Of a stretch of DNA of 64,000 nt, positions 5,232-33,187 are shown piece by piece (position 1 is the first letter of the stretch; each line of letters begins with the position of its first letter). The translations under genes were made by a program, and so were the position numbers. The notes under the pieces were generated by a model. The model did not search any database and had not been told where the DNA came from. It saw nothing but the letters and a program-made list of their open reading frames with translations. Source of the stretch: Acidobacteriota bacterium (GTDB taxonomy: Bacteria; Acidobacteriota; Blastocatellia; RBC074); NCBI GenBank assembly GCA_016715865.1, contig JADJXM010000006.1, positions 65,486 to 129,485 on the forward strand, in the 5' to 3' direction.

Positions 5232-5238
5232 TCCTTTA
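5232..5238 (-). promoter_or_regulatory. Shine-Dalgarno AAAGGAG, 6 nt upstream of the esterase start
   Basis: Minus-strand sequence gagTAAaggagatccgATGATG: stop codon of the upstream gene, the SD, then the start. Confidence 0.5.
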
Positions 5239-5697: not shown

Positions 5698-5717
5698 TGC
5701 GGGGTAACCTTTCTGAT

Positions 5718-5820
5718 GAGTTGAAAGTAGAAAGTTGAAAGTCAGAGCGCTTGAGGCCCGGGCGGGTTTCTAACCACCGCCGAATCGCGGTTCATACTTT
5801 CAACTTTTAACTTTCAACTT
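5718..5820. repeat. Hairpin element A1: arms gttgaaagtagaaagttgaaagt / actttcaacttttaactttcaac around a roughly 50-nt core
   Basis: Inverted tandem heptamers (GTTGAAA/AGTAGAA) between the lipoprotein start and the decarboxylase stop. Confidence 0.7.
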
Positions 5821-5822
5821 TA

Positions 5823-7241
<1,419 letters not shown>

Positions 7242-7288
7242 GATGATGAGTCCTGTTTGATAATGGAATCACGGGCGCTCGATGTCGC

Positions 7289-8181: not shown

Positions 8182-8185
8182 TAAT

Positions 8186-8282
8186 TAGAAGAAGTTTCCA
8201 GCGGAAGAAGTTTCCAGTTTCCAGTGACACAAAGTTTCCTGTACCAACTGGAAACTGGAAACTTTCTCTCACTGGAAACTAC
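8186..8282. repeat. Hairpin element G2 (GTTTCCA-arm family)
   Basis: gaagtttccagtttccagtg ... cactggaaactggaaac. Confidence 0.7.
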
Positions 8283-9284: not shown

Positions 9285-9619
9285 ATTCTTTAACAGGCTC
9301 AGGATAATTTAATCCGGTTTGGAACCGGCAGGAAAGCGTTCCGTATGAGGCGCTTTTCGGCGACGCCGTCCTTTGAAATTTTCAGGGCTCTTTAGTGAAT
9401 AATCCGGATGGAACGGTGTCTTTCCTTCATCAGATCATCATCATACACTTGCCATGTCGAGAAAGAAAACCAAAAACTTCCTAAAATATTTCGTTTGAAC
9501 TCTGACGCCCGTGACTGTATGATTTGAAAAGGAATTCGGCTGATTTGCCTGGAATTCGTGATTCGTGCGCTTACCCCCCTTTATCTACACCCGGAGAATC
9601 ACCTATCTTCCCAGATGGC

Positions 9620-11377
<1,758 letters not shown>

Positions 11378-11384
11378 GATTAAG

Positions 11385-11459
<75 letters not shown>

Positions 11460-11464
11460 AATGA

Positions 11465-12471
<1,007 letters not shown>

Positions 12472-12518
12472 TGACGTGCCTCCGACACGATATTCGCTAT
12501 GCATTCTAAATCAGACTT

Positions 12519-13070
12519 ATGAAATTTAGCACTGTGAACAGGATAAGCAAGGGAGATGAAGGCAGGTTTCCAGGCAAATTGCAGCTTGACGACCCGGTCT
12601 CGATGCGTTACAAAAGGATGGAATTTTTGTCGATCCGGATCCGCTCCATTCCCTCTGGACGCGGATCAGAGAAGGTGCCTCTGCGTTTACTTCAAAAGAA
12701 CAAAAGGCAGGAGTCTGGCTTGCGAAACATACCGCGCTTTTGCTCCCTTGACGGATTCACCGAGTTGAGTTCAGCGCTCGGGGGTGTCGCGCTGCGAACG
12801 CTTGAGCCGTTCGATACCGTTTGTGCGCGGACATTGAATAACGACTATTACATCTTCCTGATTGAACCTGAATCGGGCAAGGCTCTGGTTCAGGGAGGCC
12901 GTTATTTCTCACAGCCCATCGAAGCCACCGTCAGCGGGTCCACCTTTGGCGGATGCATGCTCAAGATGGGCTGGCTCGGCATCGGCCTGCACATCGAAAT
13001 CTGCGCATCAGGCCAGCGCATCGTCACCTCGCCGGTCCAATCGCTTCACATCGAATATGCCGGCAACTAA
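12519..13070 (+). CDS. Hypothetical protein (weak PilZ-like resemblance at best)
   Basis: ORF only, with no confident motif. It is convergent with vanZ. Confidence 0.25.
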   Translation: MKFSTVNRISKGDEGRFPGKLQLDDPVSMRYKRMEFLSIRIRSIPSGRGSEKVPLRLLQKNKRQESGLRNIPRFCSLDGFTELSSALGGVALRTLEPFDTVCARTLNNDYYIFLIEPESGKALVQGGRYFSQPIEATVSGSTFGGCMLKMGWLGIGLHIEICASGQRIVTSPVQSLHIEYAGN

Positions 13071-16563: not shown

Positions 16564-17148
16564 CTATCTGGCTTTGCTCAGCTCCTGTCCGGCTCGCTCG
16601 ACCAGTTTTTTATCGTCTTCAACCGTCAATTCGCGACGGATCATCTGCTCAGCCAGCTCGACCGACTTGGTAGCCGTGAATTCCCTCAGATCAGCCAGGG
16701 CGATCTGACGGGCCGCGTCGATATCGCGCACCGCAGTCGCTCGAACCTTCTCAAGATCGCGCTGAGTCTCGGTCTGAATCCGCTCCCGTTCAACAATCGA
16801 TTCCCGTTCAGCCTGGGCCTTGATCTCGCCGATCTCGATGTCCAGCCGGTCAAGCCGCGCATCCAGATCGGCCATCTTCGCTGCTGCTTCGTCCTTCTCT
16901 CTTGCCGCGCGCTCGAGCGTCTTGCGCACATCCGCCAGTCGCGACTGGAAAAAGCCTCGAATCGGCTTGCGGACCAGAAAGTACATAACCCCGACAAAGA
17001 TCGCGAGGTTGACGGCCTTGGCAATGCCCGGATGAATTCCGCCTCCGCCGCTCAGCAAAAACAACGGTTGTATCTCTAAAAATGACATTGGAATATAAAA
17101 CGCTGCGAATGAAACGTTCCGGGACCAGAGACTATCAGTTGTCTTCAT
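16564..17148 (-). CDS. atpF: F1Fo ATP synthase subunit b
   Basis: Single N-terminal transmembrane segment followed by a long charged coiled-coil. Position in the operon supports the call. Confidence 0.7.
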
Positions 17149-17154
17149 AAAGCC

Positions 17155-17634
<480 letters not shown>

Positions 17635-17756
17635 GGCAGAATTCGCCTCTCCTCTCGTCCCGATACCCCGACAGAGTCCTTCCAGAGTTTACTTTGTGAT
17701 ACCGCTGATAGGGTCGAAATCTGTCGGTTTAGTTAAGCGAGAATAATTAGCACAGA

Positions 17757-17780
17757 AATTCACAAAGTGTCAACCTGACT
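17757..17780. repeat. Candidate attL-like direct repeat: aaattcac...cacaaagtgtcaac
   Basis: A 14-nt exact match plus an 8-nt flank match to 27741..27767 (a 7-nt indel between them). It bounds the low-GC region that contains both integrases. Confidence 0.4.
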
Positions 17781-18240
17781 ATGATGAACCCTGCATCGTC
17801 CTATGACGTTTTATGTCGTTTTATTGAGGTTTACAGCCGCAGGGAGAAGCGGCAATGACGGTTTAGGACGGTCTATGTAACGGTAATTTGCCTCTGAGGA
17901 GCCTCAGAGAATTGCCAACGCCCGAATCAAATCATCTGAGAAGGGGCGAAAGATCAAGTTTCGTCCCTTCAGGGCGTTTTCAGCCTGGATGACGTTCACC
18001 GCGTCAACCAAGCCTAACCAAAAACGCGAAGTGACCGCGATGCTGGCTGATTTAATTTTATCAAATTCTGGTAAATCTTCCAGTCTTCCCTTACCGCTTC
18101 GCCTTTTATTGAAAGGGCGATCATGAGCCACAAACAGAAAATTTCTTTTGAATCAGAGCATAAGGCTTTTTCTTATCTCTTCGCAGGATTGATAACCCTT
18201 TGCGCCTTCCCTGTCCTGGCCTATCACTACGCGACCACGC

Positions 18241-18861
18241 TTGAAGGCTTTGCATATTCTTGCCACTGGCGGCCTTTTTGGCGACCGATGCCGTCAGTGG
18301 TTTGCAGCGCATTGGAGCGTTAAAACCAGATCATCAGCAATGCGGGCCGTCTCTCTTATCGTCAAATTTTTGATTGCGACTGTTGCCGTTTGCGTGGCCG
18401 CAGTCGTGATTTTGTTGATGAGAGGCGACCGCCAGACCGAAACAATGATTCGCCAGCAATCCGAAGCGCGAAAAATCGAGATCGAGGCGAGGGCCGAGGC
18501 TGCGGCGAAGCTCGCCCAGGTCAAAGGCGGGCGGGCCGCATCACGCGAAGCAATGAAGATGAACGAGACGCGAGGCTCGAGGCCGCGACCACTGAGACCA
18601 GATCGAATCTCGAAAAACGAATCCCCAGAGATGGTTTCGGATTTTGGCGTCTATGCAATCCCACCTATTGTGGCCATTCTGGGAGCTTTGGCCTTGACGA
18701 TCACAGCTACCATTATCAAAAAGCACGAAGCTGAAGAAGAAGCGATCAGCCTCGAGCCTTTACGATTCTCTTCCCTGCCTGGCGAGCAAGGTAGTAAGCC
18801 TGTCCAGGTCTGGCGCGGAGGCGTCATGGTCGAACCGTCAAAGGATGTACGCCCAAACTGA
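18241..18861 (+). CDS. Hypothetical membrane protein (2 predicted transmembrane segments)
   Basis: ORF only. The start may be the internal Met near 18340. Confidence 0.3.
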   Translation: MKALHILATGGLFGDRCRQWFAAHWSVKTRSSAMRAVSLIVKFLIATVAVCVAAVVILLMRGDRQTETMIRQQSEARKIEIEARAEAAAKLAQVKGGRAASREAMKMNETRGSRPRPLRPDRISKNESPEMVSDFGVYAIPPIVAILGALALTITATIIKKHEAEEEAISLEPLRFSSLPGEQGSKPVQVWRGGVMVEPSKDVRPN

Positions 18862-19512
18862 CAGCGCCGGCGATCATCGCGGCAAGACCGCCGCGCAATC
18901 TTCAATTCAAGTCATTAATGACCAGCCGCGAAATATCTCTTCCACTGGCATTAGTGCCAGCCCAGGCAGAAAGTCAGATATTGGCATTAGTGACAATCAA
19001 GGGATGAAGTCACCCAGACCGAAGACCGGACCGAGGCCGCCGAAACGAAAAGGCTATATATGGTCATCACACGGCGCGGGATGGGATTGTCGAAGAGACG
19101 AACGGATAAACGGCAAGGGGCCGCGTCCGTATGTCGGACATCTCAGCAAAGCCGAATTTGACAGGATCAGGTCAGAAAACAAGACCCCGGCAACCCTTCA
19201 AAAAGCCTTTGAGCTTTGGATTGAAGAAAAAGAAAAATCGAAAGGAATCAACCATGAGCGAAACAATGACCAATGACCAGTCAGCCCAGAATCAACCGCC
19301 TCTTTCACGCTGTCTTGAGAACCTGCAAAAAGCCCTTGCGGATGTCGTCTGTCATCCAGACCTGTCAGGCGATGCGAAGTCATTTCTCATAGACTTCTGC
19401 AAAGTCATTTCTGAAAAGGCTTCTGAATCCGTCAAAGGGGAAAAAGCTTAGTGCCGCAGAATCTAGCAATAAACCAATTGTTGCCACATGTGGCAGAAAA
19501 GGGAAGAGGATC

Positions 19513-20655
19513 ATGGCCAGATCAAAACAAGGATCAGTAGTCAGGCGGGGCAAGTTGATTTATGCCCGTATTCGATGGACGGAGCGAATAGGCAATCAAT
19601 CTGTCACCCGCGAGAAGCTTGAGAGAGTCATGACCATTTCAGAAGGCCGGGAACAATGCAAACAGATGTTGCGCGACCTGGAAGAGAAGGGACAGACCAT
19701 CTTCGAGACACAGCGAATGACCTTCAACGATCTGGCCATGATTTACTCTGAAAGAAAACTCATTCCTGCCCAGTATCACGATGACAGGAAGATTGCAGGC
19801 TTGCGCTCCCTGGCGTCTGCAAAAGTCCAGATGCGATCACTTCAGGCTTACTTTGGGACATTCACTTTGAAAGAGATCACCCATTCAGACCTTGAACGAT
19901 TCAAGCTTCTGAGACTGGGAAAGACGACCAGGCGCGGATCGAGGCCGTCAATCGCAACCGTAAACAGGGAGCTTGAGCGAATGCGGGCCATGCTTCGATT
20001 TGCCGTCCGTCAAGGCTATCTTTCAAAATCGCCCTTTGAAATGGGCGAGTCACTTATCAGCAAAGCCGATGAACGAATGAGAGAGCGATTATTAACCATC
20101 GAGGAAGAGTGCCGATTGATTGAAGCTTGCACCGGCAACCGCGCACACTTGCGGCCTATTATCATTTGCGCGATTGATACGGGGATGAGGCGCGGCGAAA
20201 TCTTGAAATTGAAATGGTCTGATATGAGCCTGGATGATGGCATCATTAAACTGAGAGCGACCACAACAAAGACAGGGAAGCGGCGAATTATCGGTATCAC
20301 ACCCAGGCTTGAAGCCGAGCTTCACGGCCTTTGGGATCAGAGCTTGATGATTGATGAAGCTCTGGTCTTTGGAATCAAGAGCGATATCAAGAGATCGTTT
20401 GCGACCGCTTGCAGAATCGCGGGAATCAGCGATTTACGCTTTCATGATCTAAGGCACAGAGCAAGCCTTGATTTATTGCAGGCGGGCTTGTCCGAAGAAT
20501 TAGCGATGAAGATTCTAGGCCATACTCAGAGATCGACTTTCAGCCGGTATATCAACCCGGATCATAGAATTGCAAGAGAAGCGGCAAAGGCATTGGAAGT
20601 CTTACAGACCGCAAGAAATCAAGAGCGCATACATGAAAAAAGTAAATGTGCATGA
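19513..20655 (+). CDS. Tyrosine-type site-specific recombinase/integrase
   Basis: C-terminal catalytic box R...HDLRH...Y (RFHDLRHRASLDLLQAG...STFSRYINPD). Confidence 0.85.
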   Translation: MARSKQGSVVRRGKLIYARIRWTERIGNQSVTREKLERVMTISEGREQCKQMLRDLEEKGQTIFETQRMTFNDLAMIYSERKLIPAQYHDDRKIAGLRSLASAKVQMRSLQAYFGTFTLKEITHSDLERFKLLRLGKTTRRGSRPSIATVNRELERMRAMLRFAVRQGYLSKSPFEMGESLISKADERMRERLLTIEEECRLIEACTGNRAHLRPIIICAIDTGMRRGEILKLKWSDMSLDDGIIKLRATTTKTGKRRIIGITPRLEAELHGLWDQSLMIDEALVFGIKSDIKRSFATACRIAGISDLRFHDLRHRASLDLLQAGLSEELAMKILGHTQRSTFSRYINPDHRIAREAAKALEVLQTARNQERIHEKSKCA

Positions 20656-21175
20656 GCCTGAAGCGGCTTTATATCTGGTTTACTCATATCAGAAAGCTGA
20701 ATTTCATCAGGCTTTAGAAAAAGCAATTTTGAGTGCATACAAGAAAGAATCTCCCAAATCACCAATCAAAGTACTGGACACTGAAAAAGCCATCATTTCA
20801 ATTAAACGAGTCTTGAGGGAGTTTTCGGCAAGCAACAAAAAGCGGGGAAGAAAAACGGATCAAAGAGCAATAAAAGCAGACAGCTATTTCAAAGTCGCAC
20901 TAGAAGATGCCAAGTTGACAATGGCCAAATTTAAGCTAATGGACAATCAAAGCCGTCAAGAGTTTTGGGAAGAAAAAGTCTGGCAAAAGCACGAACGCGA
21001 AATAATCGAAGACGAATTATTTTTCGATGGCAGTAAAGCCCTTGTAAGAGGAAAAGATGCTTTATTGACTGAAAAGCGAAGGATCGAGGATTTAGTCAGA
21101 CGATGGAACATGGCGAAGCCACGGCGAGCAATGAAAAGAAAAGGTCAACCACGAATAAATTCTGAAAAGAAATAA
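20633..21175 (+). CDS. Hypothetical Lys-rich protein
   Basis: ORF only, AT-richer codon usage. Confidence 0.3.
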   Translation: MKKVNVHEPEAALYLVYSYQKAEFHQALEKAILSAYKKESPKSPIKVLDTEKAIISIKRVLREFSASNKKRGRKTDQRAIKADSYFKVALEDAKLTMAKFKLMDNQSRQEFWEEKVWQKHEREIIEDELFFDGSKALVRGKDALLTEKRRIEDLVRRWNMAKPRRAMKRKGQPRINSEKK

Positions 21176-21244
21176 TTCGCCGAATAAATTCAAGTCCGTA
21201 ATTTATTCGCCTTCATTTTTGGTAAGGTCGAAGTCGGAGGGATC

Positions 21245-21697
21245 GTGACGATGAAGAGAAACGGAATCCTGACAATTCGAAGAATGAAGGAATGCGAGAT
21301 CAACCGCCTTACTGGTAAGGAGTCTTGCAGGGAAGTAAACCCGAAAAAGGTTATGACCCTTCAACAAGCCGAGACCGCAAAGCAAAGAGCCGAGCGTTTC
21401 GCCTTGAATGTCCTTCGAGATGAAGACCTGGCTGATGACATCGCCGATGAAAGTCTTGAAGACTGGATCGAGCGCAAGGGCATCACAATCAAAAACCCGC
21501 AAAAGGAGAATAAACCGATGGCAACAAGACAGCCTTCAAAAGCCGACCTCGAAAACAAAATCGCCGAACTCGAAGAGGAATTGAGCGAGTACAAGGAACG
21601 CGAAGAGCAGATGTGTGAGCTTCTGGGGCTCGAACCGGAAGACGAAGATGAAGAGATCGAGGACGAAGACTTCGAGGAAGAAGACGAAGCCGCATAA
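21245..21697 (+). CDS. Hypothetical protein with coiled-coil and poly-acidic C-terminus
   Basis: ORF only. The C-terminus is EDEDEEIEDEDFEEEDE. Confidence 0.3.
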   Translation: MTMKRNGILTIRRMKECEINRLTGKESCREVNPKKVMTLQQAETAKQRAERFALNVLRDEDLADDIADESLEDWIERKGITIKNPQKENKPMATRQPSKADLENKIAELEEELSEYKEREEQMCELLGLEPEDEDEEIEDEDFEEEDEAA

Positions 21698-21712
21698 CGG
21701 GAGAGGTGGAAC

Positions 21713-22087
21713 ATGGCTTACTACACAGGATACTCAACGCCCGTTCCAGCCGATAAAACCGGTCATTGGTCAGACGTTGAATCTCTCCCTGGCGCATACG
21801 CCCCAGGCTTCGAATCTTCGCCTTATTACGTCGGGCCAGCCGGGGCGCGAACCTGGATACCAAACCAGCCTCAACAGCAGGCACAGCAACCGCCACAGCT
21901 TCAGGATCACCCTTCGACTTCTCAGGATACCTGTCTGGGTATGGGCCGGAATCGGATTACTTGTAGTTGTGATTCTGGTCAAGAAGAAATGACGATTGAT
22001 TTTACGGGGACATCTGCAAGTTTGCCGACTCGAAGATGTCCCCGCCCCCCCCACACCGATAGCAGCATCGGCGGGGAGAGATTCTAA
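21713..22087 (+). CDS. Hypothetical protein
   Basis: ORF only. Confidence 0.25.
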   Translation: MAYYTGYSTPVPADKTGHWSDVESLPGAYAPGFESSPYYVGPAGARTWIPNQPQQQAQQPPQLQDHPSTSQDTCLGMGRNRITCSCDSGQEEMTIDFTGTSASLPTRRCPRPPHTDSSIGGERF

Positions 22088-22478
22088 CACCTTCTCCCGC
22101 CTAAAGGTAGATACCTGGCCGATGTAGCCATCACTAAACTTTTACCAAGTATGCTCGAAGACCTTTTTCAATCTGACCCAGAATTAGCCTTGTATATCGA
22201 GCGTCAACGGTTTCAAGCGTCGATGCGCGATCAAAGCCGCTTCGAAAGCCTTAACGAAATTCTACCGCGAATGATGCAATCAATAATGCCTGACGCCGTT
22301 TCGACCGAACCGGAAGAGGGCATGGCTTTTTATCAGCTTGGATGAAGGCCGCGCATTCGATTATCAACCGGACGCTATCCGGTATTGATTCGATCACGGC
22401 GCGGGCCTTCATTCGGATTGACTGCGGAAAAATCGCGGCCTTTTCCGGGACTATTCCGGTAATCATCGAGGAAAAACT

Positions 22479-22904
22479 ATGACCACAAAAACGAGACAGA
22501 CCAGGAGCCGCAATAATGCAGATCAGAAGAACAAGGGCGAAATCGTTTCCTTCGATGTCTTCCTTAGTGAAGACCCATTCGAGGCGGGCAAGGAATCGAA
22601 GAAAGAACCCCTGGGGCCGATCACCTTCAGTCAAAACTATCTGAAAGACGCAGCGCAGCAATTCGGCGGCGGCGAATATTACTACTTCCTGCCACGACAT
22701 GCAGACGGGAGTTTCGGAACCGGCAAGACTCTTTTCTGTCCCAAAGTCGATCAAGAAGCCATCGAGGAGCCATTGACCGAGGATTACATCGAGGCCGAAA
22801 CAATGACCGGGCCGGATATCCGGCGAATTATCCGCGAAGAGATGTCATCGAGCGTCCGCAATCCTCAAAACGGGCATCATTCCTCAACATCATCGAGCTT
22901 GTGA
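22479..22904 (+). CDS. Hypothetical protein
   Basis: ORF only. Overlaps the next ORF as ATGA, which suggests an operon. Confidence 0.35.
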   Translation: MTTKTRQTRSRNNADQKNKGEIVSFDVFLSEDPFEAGKESKKEPLGPITFSQNYLKDAAQQFGGGEYYYFLPRHADGSFGTGKTLFCPKVDQEAIEEPLTEDYIEAETMTGPDIRRIIREEMSSSVRNPQNGHHSSTSSSL

Positions 22905-23566
22905 CGGCCATAGAAAGAATTGAAAACATGACCGCCGAAGATGAACCCAGGGATAAAACATCTGAGATCATCGGAACTCTGAAAGGGCTTGAAGAGATCA
23001 GAGGAATGTTTTCATCCAGGGAAGAGAACCCCAGGCCGATTATCGAGAACAAACCACTGACGACCGAGGCCGCATTGTTGAAGCTTATATCTGAAGACCC
23101 TATCGCCCTGGCCGCAGCCCGCGATCGTCTCTTAGGAAGCGAAGGCGAATCGTTTAGTTTCATGCAGCTCATACCCGCGATCATGCCAACCGTGGAAAGA
23201 ATCGTCTCTTCGATCACTGACGCGATGAAGGCCGCGAATCCGTCACCGGCGATAAATCAACCGGCGACCATTCCGCAGCCTGGCGGCGATCAGCCATCAC
23301 CCGCGACAGCCTTCAATCCCACGCAGCCGCCACAAGCGCAAGCACCCGGCGATCTGAGCATGCAGGCGGCATACGGGCGGGTTTTTAATTCCTTCCTCAA
23401 CGCCCTGGCGACGAATGCAGACGTTGAACCTATCGTCACCGCCTTTGATTCATTCTGCAATCTCTTTCCAGAGCATGAATTGATGATCGATGGCTTGATG
23501 ACACAACCGCCTGAAATGGTCATCGGATTTTTGAATCAGGCTTTGCCACAGGCCGCGAATGTTTGA
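22901..23566 (+). CDS. Hypothetical protein (Pro/Gln-rich linker)
   Basis: ORF only. Confidence 0.35.
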   Translation: MTAIERIENMTAEDEPRDKTSEIIGTLKGLEEIRGMFSSREENPRPIIENKPLTTEAALLKLISEDPIALAAARDRLLGSEGESFSFMQLIPAIMPTVERIVSSITDAMKAANPSPAINQPATIPQPGGDQPSPATAFNPTQPPQAQAPGDLSMQAAYGRVFNSFLNALATNADVEPIVTAFDSFCNLFPEHELMIDGLMTQPPEMVIGFLNQALPQAANV

Positions 23567-23675
23567 ATGCGCCGCATGCCATCGATTGGATCAAGAGACT
23601 TCAGGAAGCATACACGAAGGAACCGGACGGGCAGCCTGACGCTGAACCGACCGAAGCAATGAAAGGGGCTGCTTC

Positions 23676-24292
23676 ATGAAAGTCATCATCGGTGCGGGCG
23701 GATCGAGTCAACCTGGATGGATCAGCTTCAATCAAGACGACCTGGATATAACCAGGCTTACAGACTGGGCGAAACATTTTTCAAAGGCATCTATTGATTG
23801 CATTGTCGCCGAACATGTCTGGGAGCATTTGACGATGGAGCAAGGATTCATCGCAGCGGTCAATTGTTGGCTATATCTCAAGCCTGGCGGAAATCTGAGA
23901 CTGGCAGTCCCAGACGGCCTTCATCCAAGTTTCAATTATTTCAATTGGGTGAAGCCTGGCAATTGGATCAATGGAGACGACCACAAGGTTTGTACACGTA
24001 CCGAAGCCTTGAGGGAATCCTCAAAAGGGCATTGTTTCAATGCACCTTGAAAGAATACTTCGATGAGGCAGGGGAGCTTCATATAGACCCCTTGGACTAT
24101 GACCGGGGATATATCCGGCGATCAGGGTTTAGCCTTTGGGCCGGAATTTTAAGCCCGATCGTTGGAACGTGGTTTACGTCTCTTGTCATTGATGCTCGAA
24201 AAATGGGGATGGAAGAGCTTTGCCAGGCGACAGGGATGAAGCGTGCAAGCTTCAGGCGTTTCGATTTTGATTTAACGACACCTGGGATATAG
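23676..24292 (+). pseudogene. Class I SAM-dependent methyltransferase (Methyltransf_11/23-like), frameshifted
   Basis: ORF 23676..24050 carries the AEHVWEHL...YLKPGG motif II/III region. The expected C-terminus (LYTYRSLEGILKRALF...) continues in the +1 frame (ORF 23798..24292). Confidence 0.4.
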
Positions 24293-24344
24293 GCCGCGAC
24301 CTAAAAAACGAATAGCGGCCAATTCTGGCGAAATTTTCAGGCAA

Positions 24345-24395
24345 AAGAAAACCGCCTGCCGAGTTTTCGAGAAGCGGCAAGCGGTTTTAAAGGAA
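24345..24395 (+). terminator. Terminator-like hairpin
   Basis: aaaaccgcctgccgag...aagcggcaagcggtttt: a GC-rich stem flanked by A/T runs. Confidence 0.3.
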
Positions 24396-24501
24396 TAAGC
24401 TATGGCAAATAATACCACACTCTTAGAAACCACCACAAAAGAAAACAATTCTCATCGAAGACCAGATACCAACCGCCGACGAATTATTCGGGCCTTCATC
24501 A

Positions 24502-26066
24502 TTGCCACAATCTAATTGGAGTCTATCCATGGAGATGGCAAATCGGGAGAGCCTCCGGTTATTAAGAACTGCTTTGGATGACCCTGAAGGAGTTGGATTA
24601 CCCGCACCTTTTTACAATTTCGAGACACCTGATTTTCCATTGAACGCCATGCCTCCGTGGTTGAAAGCCTTTGTTGAAAAATTAGCCGCATCATCTCAAA
24701 CGCCTGTTGACCTGGCCGCACTCTTGAGTCTTGCGGTCTGTAGCGCGTCAGTTGCTCGAAACGTACGGATCGAAGCCCGGTCAGGATGGGAAGAGCCTTT
24801 AAATATTTTTGCAGTTGTCGCATTGCCACCGCAAACAGAAAAAGCCATGTCACATCAGAAGTGACAAAGCCTTTAATACAGTTTGAAAAAGAGTTGATCG
24901 AGTCTCAGTTGGATAAAATTGCAATTGAAAAAAGCGAGTATCGAATCTTAGAAAGCGAATTAGCCGAACTTGAAAAGAGATGCGCGAAGGCCAAGCCCGA
25001 AGATCAACCAAGCATTAAACAAGAGGCGAAAGCTAAGGCTAAGGAATTGTCAGCGCGAAAATTGCCTGTCTTGCCAAAGCTCATTGTTGATGACGTGACC
25101 GCCGAAGTCTTAGCCTCAATCCTGGCTGAACAAAAAGGGCGTGTCGGATTATTCAGCGCGGAAGGCGGCATCTTCGATACATTGGCCGGGCGATATTCGA
25201 ACGGCACTCCGAATTTTGATGTATTGCTCAAAGGGCACTCAGGCGATGATCTGAGAGTTGATAGACGTGACCGATCTGAACACGTTGGAAAACCAGCTTT
25301 GACAATTGGTCTGGCTGTCCAGCCTGAAGTATTACGTGGCTTGATTGATAAACCAGGCTTTCGAGGCCGCGGACTGATAGGACGCTTTCTTTACTCAATC
25401 CCGCAAAGCACTATCGGAAAGCGGAAAATACGACCGACCCCGATGAATGACGAGATTGCTCGATCCTATCAGCAAAACATTTACCGCCTGGCAGCAATCG
25501 AGCCTTTTGTGAACGACTACGGAGAAATCGAACACAGGTTGATTCGCCTCTCAAAAGATGCAGATGATTATCTTGCAGCCTTTGAAGAAGAGATAGAGCC
25601 AATGTTAGGCGAAGATGGAGACCTGGCCTTTATTGGAGACTGGGGAGGGAAACTTGCGGGCGCGACCGTCCGTCTGGCGGGCATTTTGCACCTTGCAGAA
25701 AACGCAGGGAACCTTCGCCCGAAATGGCCTGGCAACGTTTCAGCCGAGACCATGAAAAATGCAATTGCGATATCCAGATATCTACTGCCACATGCGCGGC
25801 TGGCTTATGCAGAAATGGGGGCCGATCCGAAAATCGAAGATGCGAAGTATGTACTTCGATGGATTAAAAGAACCGGATTACGCGAGTTTACGGAGCGTGA
25901 CGCATTCGAGGGGACTAAAGGCCGCTTTAAGCAAGTAGCAGGTATAAGACCGGCACTGGAAGTTTTAGAAGATCATGCCTACATTCGCCCCGAAGAAGGC
26001 GCAATAGAAAGACGCCGAGGGCGAAAATCAAGCCCGAAATACACAGTAAATCCAAACTTCAACTAG
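24502..26066 (+). pseudogene. DUF3987-family (P4-type primase-associated) protein, frameshifted
   Basis: An N-terminal DUF3987-like segment ends ...VVALPPQTEKA*. The rest continues in another frame. Restoring one base in the A5 run (acagaaaaagcc) would give PPQTGKSHVTSEV, a Walker-like motif. Confidence 0.45.
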
Positions 26067-26161
26067 CCGTCGCACAATTCGCACAATTCGCACAATTCAG
26101 TAAATTTTGTGCGAAATAGCGAATTGTGCGAATGTGCGAATTGTGCGACGGGTTCTTAGTA
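26067..26161. repeat. Hairpin element C: (CGCACAATT)x3 arms
   Basis: ccgtcgcacaattcgcacaattcgcacaattc ... gaattgtgcgaatgtgcgaattgtgcgacgg. Confidence 0.7.
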
Positions 26162-26211
26162 TTACAATTTTAGATAATTATTAATAAGCACTTATTTTCT
26201 AAGGTTGCCTG

Positions 26212-26559
26212 ATGGACAAAAATCAAGTCGAAATCTTCAAGAATATTGACAAGGCGACCGAACATTTTCACGCACTGATTGACGCTTTGAATGTCGTCTC
26301 GAAAAGGCTGATTGCACCCTGGCTTGAATCCCTGAGAACCGATATCGAGATCAGGCAGTCATCGAGAGAAATAAAAACACAATCGAGACTAATGACCGTT
26401 AAAGAGACTGCGGATTATTTACAGGTCCAAGAAGGAACGCTTCGAGTCTGGGCCAACCAGGGCGAAATTCCAACCAGGCGAATTAAATCTGAAATCCGAT
26501 TCGACCGCCGAGAAATTGACGAATGGTCTAGGCTAAATATTCACACCTGGCAAAAGTAA
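26212..26559 (+). CDS. Excisionase-family helix-turn-helix DNA-binding protein (Xis/AlpA/MerR-like)
   Basis: LMTVKETADYLQVQEGTLRVWANQGEIPTRRI...RFDRREIDEW matches the excisionase HTH pattern. Confidence 0.55.
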   Translation: MDKNQVEIFKNIDKATEHFHALIDALNVVSKRLIAPWLESLRTDIEIRQSSREIKTQSRLMTVKETADYLQVQEGTLRVWANQGEIPTRRIKSEIRFDRREIDEWSRLNIHTWQK

Positions 26560-26617
26560 GCCGTGATAAACTTGGGCCGCTTCTTCTTCCTGCGGCCACA
26601 TCGAAGGAGCATTGAGA

Positions 26618-27684
26618 AATGGGCGTTTTCATGCGCGACCCTCAAACCGGGCGAAAATGTAAAAAAGGTCAAAAGGGAATCTGGTATTACTACTTCACGA
26701 TTAAAGCCGTCGATATCGAGCGGCCATTCCCGGAAGCACAAAATAAAGAGTCAAGCTCTGGCGGTCGAGGCCAACGCAAGAAAGGCCGTCTTTGATGGTA
26801 CATATGGCCGTAAGGAATCAGGCCGGGCCAGCTTCGCAGAATTTATTCTTGGCGAATATATGACCTAGGCGAAGGACCATAAAAAGTCATGGCGATTCGA
26901 TCATTACATCGCACCCAAGGCGGCAAGGTTTTTCAAAGGCAAAAAATTTTGTGATGTGACAGTCAAAGAGATCGAGAAGTTTCGAGACACAAGATTGTCA
27001 GAGATCACAAAAAGAGGCTCGAAGCGAAACGGGAATAGTGTTTGTCGCGAAATGGCCATGCTTTCAAAAGTCTTTGACCTGGCTATCAAAAAAGACTACT
27101 GCGAAGAAAACCCCGTCGGAAAAGTCGAATGGCCGCATCAACCAAACCGGCGAGAACGATTTATTACCGAAGAGGAAGAATCCAAAATCTTTAAGTCTTT
27201 GTCCGGGCGCTATGAAAGACTGCGACCTGTTTTCCTATTGGCTCTTTATTCGGGATTGAGAAGGGGAGAGATTTTCGCCCTTCAATGGCGAGATGTAGAT
27301 TTTGAAAAGAAGAATCTTCGACTGAGAGCGGAGACCACTAAAACAAGCAAAGGGCGCAATGTGCCTTTGATAGAACCAGCTTTCTCTATTTTAGCCAAGT
27401 TGAAAAAATCAGTTGATGGTGAACCACATGAAAAAGTCTTTCCTTTCGGGGCAAGCCGGGCTTGTGCATTGTTTCGAGAAATTTTGGATCACTTAGGATT
27501 GATAGATGTTGGTCTTCACGTCCTAAGACATACCTTCGCGACAAGAGGCATGAGAGCCGGAATACACCCGCTTGTAATGAAAGACATACTTGGACATTCA
27601 ACCATCGACATGACCGCATATTATTCTCACACAGGCCGCGAAGACTTACTGAGAGAGGCCAAAAAGCTGGAAAAATCTGTCTAA
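26618..27684 (+). pseudogene. Tyrosine integrase, decayed (one frameshift plus an in-frame TAG)
   Basis: The N-terminus MGVFMRDPQTGRK..GIWYYYFTIKAV is integrase-like. The frame shifts near 26745. In-frame TAG at 26866-26868 sits where W is expected (EYMT*AKDHKKSW). The C-terminal catalytic domain HVLRHTFAT...YSH is intact. Confidence 0.7.
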
Positions 27685-27740
27685 ATGCCTCTATAGAGCC
27701 TCTTGGGTAAAGAATATTTGGCTTTTTTCTTGGAATTGTC

Positions 27741-27767
27741 AAAATTCACTTTACACAAAGTGTCAAC
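27741..27767. repeat. Candidate attR-like direct repeat partner
   Basis: aaattcactttacacaaagtgtcaac, lying 57 nt past the decayed integrase. Confidence 0.4.
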
Positions 27768-27913
27768 ATGAGTCGGAGTGACAGACACAGAGATTTCTCT
27801 TGCCTGATCAATCAATTCTGAGTACTATTTAATCTGCCTCATTAAATTTATTTGCCCAACAACTCTGTCACTGACCTTGCTCCTCACCGAACCCCCGTAG
27901 AAAGATCTCAGCC

Positions 27914-28768
27914 ATGATTCGATCATTGTTTCTAGTTTGCAGCCTGTTTATACCGACAGGAACCTACGCGCAACAGCCTTTGACGAACACCGACGTGATT
28001 TACCTGATGAAATCAGGATTTTCTGAGGAAATAATAATTGCCAAAATCAGATCAGGCGGTGGAAAGTTTGATACGTCCACATCCGCTTTGAAAAATCTGA
28101 AAGATGCAGGCGTTCAGGAATCAGTCATATTGGCTATGATCGAGACTGAATCACCCGCAAATACGGAACAAGTTGAGAGCGCACCTCTAGTCAAAATGCC
28201 TTTGAATTTGAATGAAATTCTTTTGAAGGACGGAACCCGAGTTGAGTTGGAATTGGCTTATACCGTCTCTTCAGAAAACCTCAATGAAGGTGATGCAGTC
28301 AGTTTCCTTGTCGTTCAGCCGGTGATGGTTAATGGCCTGACGGTCATCGATCGGGCAGCTGCCGCTACAGCCAGAGTCGTGAAGGCCGAGGGCGGTAAAA
28401 GCTGGGGTCGTGGAGGTCAGCTGACATGGGCTATCCAACACGTCTCTGCGGTTGATGGAACAAAAGTGCCGCTCCATTTTACTTCGCAGACCAAAGGCGG
28501 AGGCAAGCCTGGCACTGTCACGACTGGAATCGTTGTCACCGGATTGCTTTTCTGGCCCGCGGCTCCGCTATGGGGTTTCAAGAAGGGTAAACCGGCAGTA
28601 ATTCCAGCAGGTAAACGGTTTGAAGTGTTCGTTCATGGCGACATAACGATCATGACTAATCAGGTAGAGACGTCATTGCCAATTCGCGAACCCCGAAAGC
28701 AGCCGTTGCCGGCGGCAAAACCTAAAAACCGTTGTTATGAAAATGGAAGGAAGGTGCCCTGTCCATAG
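27914..28768 (+). CDS. Hypothetical secreted protein
   Basis: Signal peptide, with no recognisable family. Confidence 0.35.
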   Translation: MIRSLFLVCSLFIPTGTYAQQPLTNTDVIYLMKSGFSEEIIIAKIRSGGGKFDTSTSALKNLKDAGVQESVILAMIETESPANTEQVESAPLVKMPLNLNEILLKDGTRVELELAYTVSSENLNEGDAVSFLVVQPVMVNGLTVIDRAAAATARVVKAEGGKSWGRGGQLTWAIQHVSAVDGTKVPLHFTSQTKGGGKPGTVTTGIVVTGLLFWPAAPLWGFKKGKPAVIPAGKRFEVFVHGDITIMTNQVETSLPIREPRKQPLPAAKPKNRCYENGRKVPCP

Positions 28769-28818
28769 TTGAGTTCGCACTAAACTGTCGAGTAACTTTT
28801 ATATCAGATTATTTTTCT

Positions 28819-29655
28819 TCACAGGCGATATTCCGTTTTTAGTTGCAGGAGGTCAGATTCAAACTGATTGGCCATTGCGTATGTATACACGCGTGTGATG
28901 TCACCATTATGTTGAAAGTCAATGATCTTCCGTAGATCGCTTTTACGCTGCTTCCAGGTAAGACCATCCGTAAAAAATAAAAAAGTCGTATCAGGCCGCT
29001 TGGCATCAATGATGGTTCTGATATCTCCCAGAATATCAGTCATCTTTGAACCCGTCGCTCCGTAACCTTTCGACTCGATCAGAATACGGGGGGCGCTTTT
29101 TGTAGGGATTGCAAAATCGCACTTCGCATCTTTTCCAGAACGCCCTGAAAAAGTACAACGCGCTTGATAATTTTCTCCAAAAACATTTTTAACGATAGCT
29201 TCTACGAAGTCTTCTACATCGCGCCCGCGTTTCTGGCCGGAAATTGCGCTTCCACGTCCACTACGCAGTCTTTCCACCAAAACATCACTCCAGTGCAGCT
29301 TTCGATTGGCTTCGTTAACCATGGCCTCCAAAAGACCGGTAGAGAGGAGATCTTTAATGAATTGTTCGGGATTTGCCTTGTAGCTTTTGACGCCAATTCC
29401 CTGGTCTGAACGAATCCCCTTCATTACAGAAACAAACTGGTCTTTCGAGAAACCCAGGAACAACCGACATATCAGTAAGCCATCATCAAAATTTTCATCA
29501 AGAAGCGCTTTCACATCCTCAATTGTATAAGCCTTTTTTTGTGAAATTAATTTGATCCGTTTGATGATGCGGAATGCCGTTTCGTCCTTCCACTCGACGG
29601 TAAGCGGTCTCAGGTTATTGACGATTTCGTCGAGACTTTGTGCAATTACTTCCAT
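28819..29655 (-). CDS. Type II restriction endonuclease (DpnII/MboI-like, probably GATC-specific)
   Basis: About 278 aa, immediately downstream of and abutting a Dam-family methyltransferase. Size and context fit the DpnII family, but identity was not verified by motif. Confidence 0.45.
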   Translation of the reverse strand: MEVIAQSLDEIVNNLRPLTVEWKDETAFRIIKRIKLISQKKAYTIEDVKALLDENFDDGLLICRLFLGFSKDQFVSVMKGIRSDQGIGVKSYKANPEQFIKDLLSTGLLEAMVNEANRKLHWSDVLVERLRSGRGSAISGQKRGRDVEDFVEAIVKNVFGENYQARCTFSGRSGKDAKCDFAIPTKSAPRILIESKGYGATGSKMTDILGDIRTIIDAKRPDTTFLFFTDGLTWKQRKSDLRKIIDFQHNGDITRVYTYAMANQFESDLLQLKTEYRL

Positions 29656-30783
29656 TCATTGTCCCACGATCAAGTATTCATGTACTTCGGCACGTACAAC
29701 GTTTTGATGAGTCCCGAAATGATAGCGATGTGGTTTCTCGTACAGAGTGACTCTTTTCTTGTAACGGCTTAAAAGATCTTCTAATACATCCTTGTCAGGG
29801 AAACCGTTGGAGCTATATGAGAGAACGATAGTGCTGTTGCGGTATAGTTGAAAAAGCTTGTCAAAGGCTTCGATCGCCGTTTTTCTATAGCTGAATGGCG
29901 TATAGGGTTTTTCGATTTTCTTAACTTTTGTGCTTTCCATGATCCGAAGTCCTTGCCAATAACAAGAAAGACCTTCCAGAAAGTGATATCGCTTAACGTA
30001 GCAGTTGTCATCCGAGCGCGGCACATATGGCGGATCCAAATAGACCAGATCAACACCCTCTGGCTTTAATGTAAAAACGTCTGCTCGTTTTACTATATTC
30101 TGGCGACCATTATCGAAAACAACCCGGTTGAATGTCTCGATCTGTTCAAGAAAATGTTCTTCGATAGAAAGCTGCAGATCCCGTCGACCATCGTCGTAGC
30201 GAGAGAGATCACCCGAAACCGTGAAGACACCACGAGGCTGCTTCTTCAAGCAAGAACGTATCAGAGCAGCGCGGGCAAGGGCACGCTGATGGTCATGTTC
30301 GAGTTTATCAAGATTATTGGAAACACGGTCCAGGAACCCCAGATCTTTGGCGGTATAGAAGATTCCTTTGAATGTTTTTTGGATGAAATTGGAGCTGTTT
30401 TTTGAAGGTGTGAGCAACTTGTCCACTGCCGGACCAGCGAGCTGATACTTACTATTTTCAACTGTCGCCATTGCCAAAACTGTTGGGAAATTCAGAAAGT
30501 CTGAAGCGATTACACTCTTGCCCATCGCCTTCAGCAAATAGGCTACACATCCGCTTCCGACAAACGGATCCGCAGCTGTCTCGAAGTCGAGAGTGCGAAA
30601 GACGCCATGAATCCATGGTAAAAGTCTGCGTTTGGAACCCATGTAGCGCAGTTCCGGATACTCCAAGACCAGCCTTGGAAGAGGGGTATCAATGATCTCT
30701 TCATGATTGATGGCGCCACTCACCTGTTCATTGGATTGCCGCGTAAAAAGAGGCATTTGAATTCCTGATCTTGGAGACGCCAT
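29656..30783 (-). CDS. Dam-family (D12 class) N6-adenine DNA methyltransferase
   Basis: Motif I RYMGSKRRLLPWI and motif IV DPPY. Confidence 0.8.
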   Translation of the reverse strand: MASPRSGIQMPLFTRQSNEQVSGAINHEEIIDTPLPRLVLEYPELRYMGSKRRLLPWIHGVFRTLDFETAADPFVGSGCVAYLLKAMGKSVIASDFLNFPTVLAMATVENSKYQLAGPAVDKLLTPSKNSSNFIQKTFKGIFYTAKDLGFLDRVSNNLDKLEHDHQRALARAALIRSCLKKQPRGVFTVSGDLSRYDDGRRDLQLSIEEHFLEQIETFNRVVFDNGRQNIVKRADVFTLKPEGVDLVYLDPPYVPRSDDNCYVKRYHFLEGLSCYWQGLRIMESTKVKKIEKPYTPFSYRKTAIEAFDKLFQLYRNSTIVLSYSSNGFPDKDVLEDLLSRYKKRVTLYEKPHRYHFGTHQNVVRAEVHEYLIVGQ

Positions 30784-30853
30784 AAATTACCTTCAGATAA
30801 TGACTGAATGATCATATCTCATTGTTATCTTGTCAATGAAGTAATTGTCGAAA

Positions 30854-33187
30854 TCAAAACTCTATCCTTCCGCCGATGATCGGGATCAGAGTCCGTTCGC
30901 GCAGGAAACCGGCCGTCCCGCTTCCCAGCCGGTAATTGACATCGACGACATTGGTGTATTTCGTCAGATTGAAGATATCGACGTAAGGCGAGAAGGACCA
31001 GCGCCTGAAATCGAAGCGGCGCTCGACGCGCAGATCGAGTTGGAAGAAGTTCGGCAACCTCAGAGCATTCCTGTCTTCAGGCCGCAACAGTTCAAACAGT
31101 GTCACTCGCGGAGGCTCGTTGAAAATCACAGGCGTCAGATTCGAGTAGGCGAGACCGCTCGCGACGCGCATTTTTGAAGCGAGCAACCATTGTCCCCAGA
31201 GCTTGATGCGGGTCAGGCCGATCAGCGTCAACTGGTGCGGGCGAGCGACTTCTGAAGGAAAAGTGAACCCTTCGGGTGTGAAACGCCTGCGGGCGCGCGT
31301 CCAGGAGTACCCCGCCTGACCGGCGAATCTTCCAGACAATGCCTTCTGAGCGGTGACTTCGACGCCCTGGACATCGGCTTCCCCAGTGTTAAGGTACCGC
31401 GGCGAGGTGCGTGTCGGTTGGACCAGCAGATCGTAGTAACTCTTACGATAAGCCTCGACTGTGACACGCACATCTTCACGCGCCAGCCATTCGATTCCGC
31501 CGATAGCGTGGACCGAGCGCTGCGCCTTGAGCGTGCGATTTTCCGGAGTTAACGCGAGCAGAAAGCTGGGAGGCGGCTGGCGATAGAGGCCCGCGGCCAG
31601 ATTGAGGGCGAAACGCGAACTGAGCCGGATGCGCGCACTTGCTCGCGGGCTGATCAGAGTCTGCCGCGTGACGCCGTACCTGTCGAAGCGCACGCCGGGC
31701 GAGATCGACAGTCGACTTGTCGCCTGCCATGTCGCCTGGGCATAGGCATAACCATTGACGGTCGAATCGATGCGCAAATGATGTTCGCGCGTCGGAGCTC
31801 GATACTCTTCGCCGATAGGGCTGTATCCGACGGGCGAACGCTCGAATGTATAAATGTCGCCCTGCTGGACGATCAGTGCTCCACCAGCCGCCAGATTGAC
31901 GCGCGGACTAAATGCGGTCGTCAACTCCTGCTTGATGCCGAACTGCGATTCGCGCAGGTCACGCCGGCGCTGCAGCGTGGTCCGATCGATGCGCAGAAAG
32001 CTGCCGTCATTGTGTTCGCCGATGCCCCAGGCTGTAATGTTCGAAAGCGTGCGATCTCCGAGAGTCGAGCTTAGCGTGGCGCCGGCGATGTAACGCTTGC
32101 CGGTACGTTCGCTGATCAACTGATCACGACGCGAAGCTCTTTGCGCGGTCTCGAACGGAACGGTGATGCGCTCGGCGAAGGTCATCGCCGTCAGTGACAA
32201 TTTGTGCCGCGGAGCCAGATCGACGTCTATCTTATTAATAACATCCAGATTGCGCGGCTTGCCGATATCGCCCAGATCGAAAAGCTCGAAGGCCAGGTCG
32301 ATGTAGCTGCGCCGGATTGAGACAAACCAGCCGGCGCGCGGCCCGAGCGGGATTTCGACGCTCCCGCCGGCTACGCCAGAATCCGCAAAGAGACTTCCCT
32401 GCACCCTGTCGCGCGTCGCTTTGCGAATGGTGATGTCGAGTGCGGAAGACATCCGATCGCCATAGCGCGCGCCGAATCCTCCGGCTGAAAATTCCAGGCG
32501 GTCAAAGACGTCCGGCGCCAGCAGCGCCGCTCGCCCTCCGCGACCGTTGTCGTATTGATCGGAAAAATAGGTGAAGTCGCCGATGGGGATGTTGTCGATG
32601 AAGGTCAGATTTTCGCTGGGGAAACCACCGCGCACCAGCAGGTCGCCAAACTGCGCCGAGTCGGCGGTCACTCCGGGCAAAGACGAGATGGCGCGCAGAG
32701 CATCGCCTCCCGTGCCGGGCAGCGATCGCAGCTCGGCACGTCGCAGCGTCACGTTGCTGATCGGCTGATCCGTCGTTTGAACATAGTATCCGCTGCTGAC
32801 CGTCATCTCTTCGGAGACCTGCAGGTCCAATCGCACATCGTAGATCGAAGTGTAACGGGCCGTAACCGTGATCAGTCCGATGATGAGTGGAGCATAGCCC
32901 CTGGCCTTCACTCGCGCCGCCCAGGTTCCGGGCGGAAGCTCCAGCCTGTAGCGACCTTCCTCATCGGTGACGGCTTCAGTCCGGTCAGCGATGGCGATTA
33001 CAGCGCCGGCGACCGGCTGTCCGCTGACGCGTTCAGTGACCTGACCGGTCACGGTTCCAGATTGAGGCGAAGGGTTCTGAGCGCCCGCGCTGGCGACTGC
33101 CGCGAGCATCACCATCGCGACCAGACAGGACTTTACCGGGAGATCCATAATCTGACTGCATACTCTGCCAACTAAATTTTCTGACAT
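30854..33187 (-). CDS. TonB-dependent receptor with N-terminal carboxypeptidase-regulatory-like domain
   Basis: Signal peptide, a CarboxypepD_reg-like Ig domain (VTGQVTERVSGQPVAGAVIA), a plug, and a C-terminal barrel ending in aromatic F. Confidence 0.8.
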   Translation of the reverse strand: MSENLVGRVCSQIMDLPVKSCLVAMVMLAAVASAGAQNPSPQSGTVTGQVTERVSGQPVAGAVIAIADRTEAVTDEEGRYRLELPPGTWAARVKARGYAPLIIGLITVTARYTSIYDVRLDLQVSEEMTVSSGYYVQTTDQPISNVTLRRAELRSLPGTGGDALRAISSLPGVTADSAQFGDLLVRGGFPSENLTFIDNIPIGDFTYFSDQYDNGRGGRAALLAPDVFDRLEFSAGGFGARYGDRMSSALDITIRKATRDRVQGSLFADSGVAGGSVEIPLGPRAGWFVSIRRSYIDLAFELFDLGDIGKPRNLDVINKIDVDLAPRHKLSLTAMTFAERITVPFETAQRASRRDQLISERTGKRYIAGATLSSTLGDRTLSNITAWGIGEHNDGSFLRIDRTTLQRRRDLRESQFGIKQELTTAFSPRVNLAAGGALIVQQGDIYTFERSPVGYSPIGEEYRAPTREHHLRIDSTVNGYAYAQATWQATSRLSISPGVRFDRYGVTRQTLISPRASARIRLSSRFALNLAAGLYRQPPPSFLLALTPENRTLKAQRSVHAIGGIEWLAREDVRVTVEAYRKSYYDLLVQPTRTSPRYLNTGEADVQGVEVTAQKALSGRFAGQAGYSWTRARRRFTPEGFTFPSEVARPHQLTLIGLTRIKLWGQWLLASKMRVASGLAYSNLTPVIFNEPPRVTLFELLRPEDRNALRLPNFFQLDLRVERRFDFRRWSFSPYVDIFNLTKYTNVVDVNYRLGSGTAGFLRERTLIPIIGGRIEF

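Follow-up and report, generated by a model that had tools for sequence, protein, structure and literature searches.

An uncultured acidobacterium with an integrative element upstream of its ATP-synthase operon

The window analysed here is a stretch of 64,000 nucleotides from an Acidobacteriota bacterium (contig JADJXM010000006.1), and positions 17775–27767 of it (9,993 bp) are a discrete insertion with duplicated attachment (att) cores. The insertion arose by att recombination: its 14-nt core was duplicated as attL and attR, and relatives of the host retain the unoccupied attB. We hold it highly probable that this is a site-specific integrative element upstream of the ATP-synthase (atp) operon, that its terminal tyrosine integrase (Int2) set the site, that it was replicated by a DUF3987 helicase acting on an iteron array, and that a protein which we call EF belongs to its replication module.

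Occupied and unoccupied integration sites

The evidence for integration comes from six contigs (L071–L076) of 94–98% nucleotide identity, which derive from different samples (ENA, NCBI and Logan) and were reached via cluster look-ups of proteins encoded in the window. All six align with the window through position 17778 and again from 27754, with an 18-nt overlap that corresponds to a single copy of the core. Their empty-site sequence, ...gcacagaaattcacaaagtgtcaac/atgagtcggagtgac... (the slash marks the junction), is exactly the left arm of attL joined to the right arm of attR, and the gene order of these contigs is atp b', about 300 nt, a 284-residue secreted protein, a DpnII-like endonuclease, a D12 methyltransferase and a TonB-dependent receptor. 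The attB junction can be written as ...TTCACAAAGTGTCAAC/ATGAGTCGG... and the attP junction of the excised circle as ...CACTTTACACAAAGTGTCAAC/CTGACTATGATG.... Since six contigs join the flanks through one core copy, both the integration and its boundaries are confirmed. The sequence-only reading of this DNA had proposed an integrated element of roughly 10 kb between att-type repeats and a comparison with related genomes for an empty site; these natural empty sites bear the proposal out.

A scan of a genome collection with the ATP-synthase b subunit retrieved a further relative (L001, ~91–96% identical), in which the alignment stops exactly at 17774 and resumes at ~30850, with a 93-nt filler in place of 13 kb. 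This contig fixes the left junction at the end of the first repeat copy; its filler showed no significant homology to what follows attR, nor to what precedes the TonB gene. A metagenome scan with b' returned only relatives of at most 73% identity, without synteny or the att motif. In the occupied state, the same attB is found in L077, where an element 83–85% identical to the one described here has the same P' arm. The precise presence/absence, the single core of unoccupied genomes set against the duplicated core of the window, and a recombinase gene beside the att site (Int2, a pseudogene here, 57 nt before attR; a second, internal integrase, Int1, is intact) together identify a site-specific integrative element.

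The 14-nt core CACAAAGTGTCAAC occurs exactly twice in the window (17761–17774 and 27754–27767), and the core-type pattern occurs once per contig in the relatives tested (L001, L071–L077), at the atp-upstream site only; it is thus not the common genomic motif that the sequence-only reading had considered as an objection. The other objection named there, relatives with the same genes but no flanking repeats, fails too, and relatives that lack the element have a single core copy. That reading had the core right but drew the repeats at 17757–17780 and 27741–27767, where the true extents are 17756–17774 and 27742–27767. The 7-nt insert TTTACAC of the attR copy makes CACTTT/AAAGTG a perfect 6-nt inverted repeat, and three of the four bases after the core are identical between copies (CTGA vs ATGA). 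A third or internal att copy was sought within the element, allowing up to three mismatches, and none was found.

By itself, the att-type repeat carries no significance: exact direct repeats of 14 nt or more form 51 left-maximal pairs in the window, ~20 of them unrelated to simple heptamer arrays. What set this repeat apart was its position, the second copy starting 57 nt past the stop of an integrase gene, as had been noticed from the sequence (Int2 ends at 27684). These unrelated 14-mer pairs, and a low-GC tract that runs 3 kb past the right repeat, are what could be said for a chance 14-mer in variable AT-rich host DNA or in a defective prophage. Such a reading has next to no probability and is refuted by the alignments of L071–L076, in which the empty sites of six independent contigs break exactly at both repeat copies; moreover, the segment beyond 27767 is present in all six and hence lies outside the element, and no phage structural or lysis genes were found.

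The insertion point is intergenic, ~125 nt upstream of b', the first gene of the ATP-synthase operon, and is not a tRNA gene. Just inside attL, the P' arm carries a tandem repeat (Table 1) that may be an arm-type integrase binding site. As a separate observation, the att core read on the atp-coding (minus) strand (17743–17774) contains a perfect TTGACA (17773–17768) with TAATTAT 18–19 nt later; if these were the atp promoter, integration would regenerate that promoter at attL, which is speculation, and a scan for the sigma-70 consensus called no promoter at attL.

Sample ERZ24879087 yielded L071, with the site upstream of atp empty, and also L084, the element's closest intact relative. In L083, from the sister sample ERZ24879086, that relative has a diverged P' arm and lies beside a fatty-acid desaturase gene, so that the unoccupied host site is found together with a variant inserted elsewhere.

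Genes, recombinases and a proposed replication module

The element contains about 13 genes in 10 kb, and all credible ones are on the plus strand (Table 1). Domains were assigned by Pfam, NCBIfam and PHROG scans of its open reading frames (ORFs), and intact versions of its genes were supplied by L077 and L078–L080 (83–85% identical) and by L083 and L084 (87–96% identical). In these relatives, the order is membrane protein (245–278 residues), 65-residue protein, Int1, a variable slot, a 77–78-residue protein, EF, methyltransferase and replicative helicase; L083 has a different 255-residue gene in the variable slot, and the flank of L083 and L084 is the desaturase gene instead of the atp operon. 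Ratios of nonsynonymous to synonymous substitution (dN/dS) of 0.06–0.22 for Int1, ORFs A, B and D, EF, the methyltransferase, the membrane protein and DUF3987 indicate that these are real genes under purifying selection.

Table 1. Features of the integrative element, with positions in the window
Feature	Position	Strand	Remarks
attL	17756–17774		host arm + 14-nt core (AAATTCACAAAGTGTCAAC); alignments of L001 and L071–L076 break here; element starts at 17775
Tandem repeat TATGACGTTT / TATGTCGTTT	17802–17824	+	P' arm; 2.3 copies; conserved in L077, diverged in L083 (other locus)
Membrane-protein gene	18123–18861	+	broken by at least 3 frame-disrupting indels; intact orthologues 245–278 aa, dN/dS 0.06 between them
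65-aa gene	19254–19451	+	MBK9314620 in source annotation; no assigned function; conserved in L077, L083
Int1, internal tyrosine integrase	19513–20655	+	intact, 380 aa; PF00589 1.2e-22; dN/dS 0.12–0.16
ORF A	20633–21175	+	180 aa; variable slot; dN/dS 0.18; no family hits
ORF B	21251–21697	+	148 aa; acidic C-terminus; homologues in L077, L083, L007; dN/dS ~0 vs L077
Window-only segment	21699–22033	+	~290–330 nt; includes mechanical ORF 21713–22087; absent from L077, L083
ORF D	22151–22345	+	64 aa (77–78 aa in relatives); dN/dS 0.22
EF	22479–23679	+	single 393–399-aa gene in relatives; split here near 22886 and 23562, C-terminus lost
Class I S-adenosylmethionine (SAM) methyltransferase	23676–24292	+	205 aa if intact; weak Methyltransf_23 match; frameshift near 23988
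DUF3987 (YfjI-type) helicase gene	24400–26066	+	574 aa in L083; 1-nt deletion at 24831; 57-nt in-frame deletion near 5' end
Iteron palindrome	26067–26151		3 direct TCGCACAAT + 4 inverted copies; candidate replication origin or operator
AT-rich stretch	26152–26205		between iterons and HTH_17 gene; sequence read directly
HTH_17 excisionase-family protein	26212–26559	+	115 aa, intact; PF12728 2.3e-12; TIGR01764 'excise' 36.2 bits vs cutoff 28.8
Int2, tyrosine-integrase pseudogene	26619–27684	+	frameshift ~26700–26740; TGG>TAG 26866–26868; catalytic part (26956–27684) otherwise complete
attR	27742–27767		P arm + core, AAATTCAC-TTTACAC-AAAGTGTCAAC; element ends at 27767

Much of the gene list drawn from the sequence stands: plus-strand genes in DNA that is AT-richer than its surroundings (GC fraction 0.484 for 17775–27767 vs 0.56 for the remainder of the window), an intact integrase, a split DUF3987 gene, an excisionase-type helix-turn-helix (HTH) protein, a decayed integrase and a frameshifted SAM methyltransferase all agree with family matches and intact orthologues. 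To this list we add the broken membrane-protein gene and the 65-residue gene left of Int1. The supposed ATGA-coupled gene pair (22479–22904 and 22901–23566) has to be abandoned, as it is really the single EF gene, in which frameshifts create the two ORFs and remove the last ~37 codons; 'coupled ORF pairs' in metagenome-assembled genomes (MAGs) can be split genes, which calls for caution. The suggested anti-phage or hijacking role of the cargo likewise found no support in PADLOC, Pfam or PHROG hits: PADLOC called no system in the cargo and gave nothing beyond an HTH match below threshold (mad1) and a weak hit to PbeC (7e-4). Between ORF B and ORF D, the segment found only in the window holds a low-complexity ORF and an inverted repeat at 22005–22044 (17-nt arms), and it has no match elsewhere in the window or in any fetched locus.

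Integration proceeded by recombination of the chromosomal attB (AAATTCACAAAGTGTCAAC) with an element attP sharing the 14-nt core, and the recombinase that set the site was probably the terminal Int2, because its gene lies 57 nt from attR and directly behind the HTH_17 gene, in the classic xis-int-att layout. The same HTH_17, integrase, att order is shared with a 13.8-kb contig (L007) whose terminal integrase is 36% identical to Int2 and whose DUF3987 protein is 65% identical to that of the window. Int1 and Int2 are only 29% identical to each other, and Int1 does not appear to track the insertion site, since its orthologue in L083 (93.5% identical) is closer than that in L077 (89%), yet L083 has another flank and a diverged P' arm and L077 occupies the same site.

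For replication, the two DUF3987 ORFs (24502–24864 and 24786–26066) form one split gene that matches PF13148 (1e-86) and phrog_2373, 'DNA helicase' (9e-53). A DUF3987 protein has been shown to be a 5'–3' helicase that works with the primase of a mobile genetic element (PMC11724360). Directly after the DUF3987 stop, seven copies of TCGCACAAT are packed into 85 nt, and the rest of the window has none. This geometry of three direct plus inverted copies recurs in L007, built from a different 9-mer (TTACTCRCA), directly after its own DUF3987 gene, as would be expected of a cognate initiator/origin pair, and the palindrome at 26067–26151 is a candidate replication origin. After excision, the circle would be replicated by the DUF3987 superfamily helicase acting on the iterons and on the AT-rich stretch 3' of the gene, in a rep-ori layout like that of phage-inducible chromosomal islands (PICI) and of their Staphylococcus aureus pathogenicity island (SaPI) members. 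An Rfam scan of 17000–31000 gave a single match, a miRNA on the iteron palindrome, which was rejected as spurious.

EF stands next to this module. It falls into three 90%-identity clusters in an index of 5.8 billion proteins and into 53 clusters at 50% identity, all of ~380–475 residues, in an exhaustive search of 1.84 billion representatives. Scans of all 40 family members against Pfam and PHROGs came back without a hit, as did a profile search of the PDB. An AlphaFold model built on a 40-sequence alignment (pLDDT 72) has a confident N-terminal beta domain (20–90) and a C-terminal helical domain (290–380), with no significant fold match. EF homologues always sit just upstream of a replicative helicase, and these helicases are of three unrelated kinds: DUF3987 (window, L083), AAA_25 (L078, L079) and DUF927 (L086). 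Because of this synteny we place EF, provisionally, in the replication module; the methyltransferase lies between EF and the helicase in two of the three helicase types.

Comparison of the relatives suggests that the helicase module is exchangeable. At the position of DUF3987, L078 (4656–5939) and L079 (1928–3211) carry a RepA/DnaB-like AAA_25 helicase, which is 49% identical to the L083 DUF3987 protein over the first ~70 residues, the shared region being limited to these. The cluster of the L083 DUF3987 protein contained no other contig. In L086 (JGI 3300020047, Ga0206650_1001416; 1–13057), a 40%-identical EF homologue lies directly upstream of the DUF927 helicase-type gene, and further upstream on the same strand are a type I restriction–modification system (HsdR/M/S) and a DarT/Macro-domain (DarG-like) pair; because of these, distant relatives of this element type may carry defence cargo.

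Another reading is that two once separate elements were fused, one of Int1 type (membrane protein, 65-residue gene, Int1, EF and methyltransferase) and one of L007 type (DUF3987, HTH_17 and Int2), with the outer att sites alone left. The low identity between the integrases would fit such a composite, as would L007, which has the right-hand module and ORF B without Int1, and the replacement of DUF3987 by AAA_25 after the methyltransferase in L078 and L079, which makes the right half exchangeable. We nevertheless consider a fusion unlikely. In L083, Int1, EF, the methyltransferase and a DUF3987 gene that is intact are arranged as in the window, at 87–96% identity, which points to a stable family design and not to a single fusion event in this genome; homologues of ORF B occur in both element types, and even the permissive search described above recovered no internal att-like copy.

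Counter-evidence and the frame disruptions

Compared with L077, L083 and L007, the window copy has five broken genes, with at least eight frameshifts and one nonsense codon: at least three indels in the membrane protein, at about 18255–18297, 18577 and 18630–18640, two frameshifts in EF, one in the methyltransferase, the 1-nt deletion in DUF3987, and a frameshift plus TGG>TAG in Int2; DUF3987 has a 57-nt in-frame deletion in addition. Over ~10 kb of flanking coding DNA, comparison with L071 and L001 revealed no frame-disrupting indel at all, and this absence favours genuine decay that is specific to the element. Provided that the assembly is correct, the copy in the window is cryptic and was immobilised recently, while its family is intact elsewhere.

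Several observations weigh against the reading proposed at the outset. For the recombinase, the intact relatives recovered stop short of the right end, so that use of this att site by Int2-type enzymes is presumptive, and Int1 is the one integrase known from L077, which occupies that site; the attP junction of the excised circle had no match in an IMG/VR scan. For replication, Pfam detects no primase domain in the DUF3987 protein, whose N-terminal 118 residues are without a Pfam match, and the iteron array, the right half of which is degenerate in L083, could instead serve as operator of the HTH gene that follows it, or form the hairpin of a terminator. For decay, the broken genes have dN/dS values of 0.08–0.14, as low as those of intact pairs, and the DUF3987 gene compared with that of L083 (dS 0.074, dN/dS 0.088) shows many indels and very few excess amino-acid changes. 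As low dN/dS persists in broken genes, the lesions are either very recent or consensus errors, and the indel pattern also fits consensus errors of a long-read MAG in a strain-variable region.

The decay described by the sequence-only reading is therefore supported in that intact orthologues expose the lesions, and qualified in that single-base indels in a MAG have this second explanation. Taken to its end, the latter would have the element intact and mobile, with every frameshift an error of metagenome assembly in a strain-variable region. We judge this less probable than decay. In its favour, eight of the nine lesions are single-base indels, several within runs of 2–4 nt, the IPM55 locus-tag series presumably belongs to a long-read activated-sludge MAG set, and presence/absence polymorphism among contigs of 94–98% identity speaks for recent mobility and mixed populations. 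It sits poorly with the undisturbed flanks of the same contig, with two lesions of another kind (the substitution in Int2 and the 57-nt in-frame deletion), and with the position of the lesions, all of which are away from GATC sites and from long homopolymers.

Relation to known elements and significance

Phage-inducible chromosomal minimalist islands (PICMI) are found in Vibrionaceae downstream of fis and have about six genes, and the model used to detect them calls for int (PF00589), alpA (PF05930 or PF12728) and a primase (PF13148 or PF19263) in co-location (PMC10803314). The present element has this three-gene core, with PF00589, PF12728 and PF13148 all within 3.3 kb, and it resembles PICMI in being small, bounded by direct repeats and inserted at a non-tRNA site beside a housekeeping gene; in both, the accessory genes are ORFans and pseudogenes are frequent. 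It differs in size and gene number (~10 kb and ~13 genes vs ~6), in having two integrases, in its order of DUF3987, HTH, integrase and att on one strand, and in its site upstream of atp instead of fis and its acidobacterial instead of Vibrionaceae host, and so does not belong to PICMI; known here from sequence alone, it shows no evidence of a helper phage or of packaging.

For transfer between cells, helper-phage packaging as in PICMI would be our leading guess. On this reading, the element is, or was until recently, a genuine phage satellite of minimalist PICMI/PICI type; a helper phage would induce it, the integrase and the AlpA-like HTH protein would excise it, DUF3987 would replicate it and helper capsids would package it, with its ORFans serving hijacking or interference. 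The domain trio is the mandatory core of the PICMI detection model (PMC10803314), and the small size, single coding strand, absence of conjugation genes, rep-then-iteron layout and mosaic relatives with swapped modules, as in satellite families, are all in keeping with this. On balance, we think it improbable: neither Pfam nor PHROG scans turned up a small terminase subunit, a gene for capsid remodelling, a cos/pac site or anything else of phage origin, a helper phage is not known, and the element has about twice the size and gene count of PICMI, in another phylum and at another integration site. In IMG/VR, the DUF3987 relatives are at most 41% identical and have nothing else in common with the element, and scans with Int1, EF and the AAA_25 helicase found no close relatives.

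The proposal of a P4/PICI-like satellite or small integrative element thus holds for the integrative element, and no packaging, capsid-remodelling or helper-phage evidence backs the satellite. Enterobacterial islands of the P4/CP4-57 type, in which CP4-57 has the gene order int-alpA-yfjI, share the combination of integrase, AlpA-like excision regulator and YfjI/DUF3987-family protein (relatives of the DUF3987 protein are named 'YfjI family protein' in source annotations), and such islands are often cryptic and decaying. The att site of the element differs from theirs in not being a tRNA gene, and psu, delta, sid, epsilon and the alpha-type primase domain of P4 were all absent from the Pfam and PHROG scans, which sets it apart from P4-like elements. 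The SaPI layout is pri-rep followed by an iteron origin, and the element similarly has a helicase gene, then direct and inverted iterons adjoining an AT-rich stretch, with an iteron sequence that varies between relatives while the geometry is kept. Its helicase is DUF3987, not the DUF927-like SaPI Rep, and Pfam and PHROG scans found no Stl-type or master repressor, terS, ppi or cpm, so that the packaging genes of PICI/SaPI are missing.

Elements of Bacteroidota that carry prokaryotic Argonaute (pAgo) encode an integrase, a PrimPol and a PriCT-DUF3987 helicase (PMC11724360). They are likewise integrative, low in GC and bounded by an integration site, with a DUF3987 helicase in the replication machinery (PMC11724360); the present element differs in having no AEP-type PrimPol gene (AEP, archaeo-eukaryotic primase), no PriCT domain and no Argonaute, and in a site that is not a tRNA. 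No Pfam domains of relaxases, coupling proteins or type IV secretion were found in the ORFs of the element, L077, L083 or L007, as integrative and conjugative or mobilisable elements would have, though an oriT may be present, and no capsid, portal, terminase or Zot-type morphogenesis genes were found by Pfam or PHROG, as a prophage would have. We would place the element in the broad class of small integrative islands with integrase, excisionase and helicase genes; its core is satellite-like.

A bolder reading, which we consider rather doubtful, would unite this element with the L077, L083, L007 and L086 types in a hitherto undescribed family of integrative islands that replicate and may be phage satellites, in Acidobacteria and other environmental bacteria. 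Its signature would be the ~400-residue ORFan EF, with the 53 clusters and the lack of a fold match given above; EF would be the dedicated partner of the interchangeable DUF3987, AAA_25 and DUF927 helicases, be it as initiator, as loader or as packaging adaptor, and the internal integrase would serve some purpose besides integration into the chromosome.

The low-GC tract continues past the element as a separate variable segment right of attB (27768 to ~30835, 45.6% GC), which encodes the 284-residue secreted protein (27914–28768), the DpnII-like type II endonuclease (28819–29655, minus strand) and the D12 N6-adenine methyltransferase (29656–30783, minus strand). This segment is present in L071–L076 and is replaced in L001 by the unrelated 93-nt filler; no repeat flanking it was found, and its type II restriction–modification pair is outside the element. 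Elsewhere in the window, long imperfect heptamer-array palindromes of the form (AAAGTAG)n ... (CTACTTT)n (11283–11382 and 11460–11599) flank tRNA-Arg(TCG) (11384–11458, minus strand), and hairpin-forming arrays of the form (AGTTTCC)n ... (GGAAACT)n occupy intergenic positions (2157–2300, 8188–8265, 44387–44401 and 47727–47840); the latter look like a host-specific family of repeat hairpins.

To our knowledge, few mobile elements of Acidobacteria have been characterised. The element offers a clean natural case of an occupied and an empty att site in an uncultured acidobacterium, at a non-tRNA site upstream of the ATP-synthase operon. Current understanding is not overturned by it, and to specialists in mobile elements this is ordinary biology. 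With it, the range of the integrase/AlpA-like/DUF3987 core of enterobacterial islands and of Vibrio PICMI satellites extends to Acidobacteria, here in company with swappable helicase modules and a conserved ORFan beside the helicase, and catalogues of satellite-like elements from soil and wastewater bacteria gain a point of reference.

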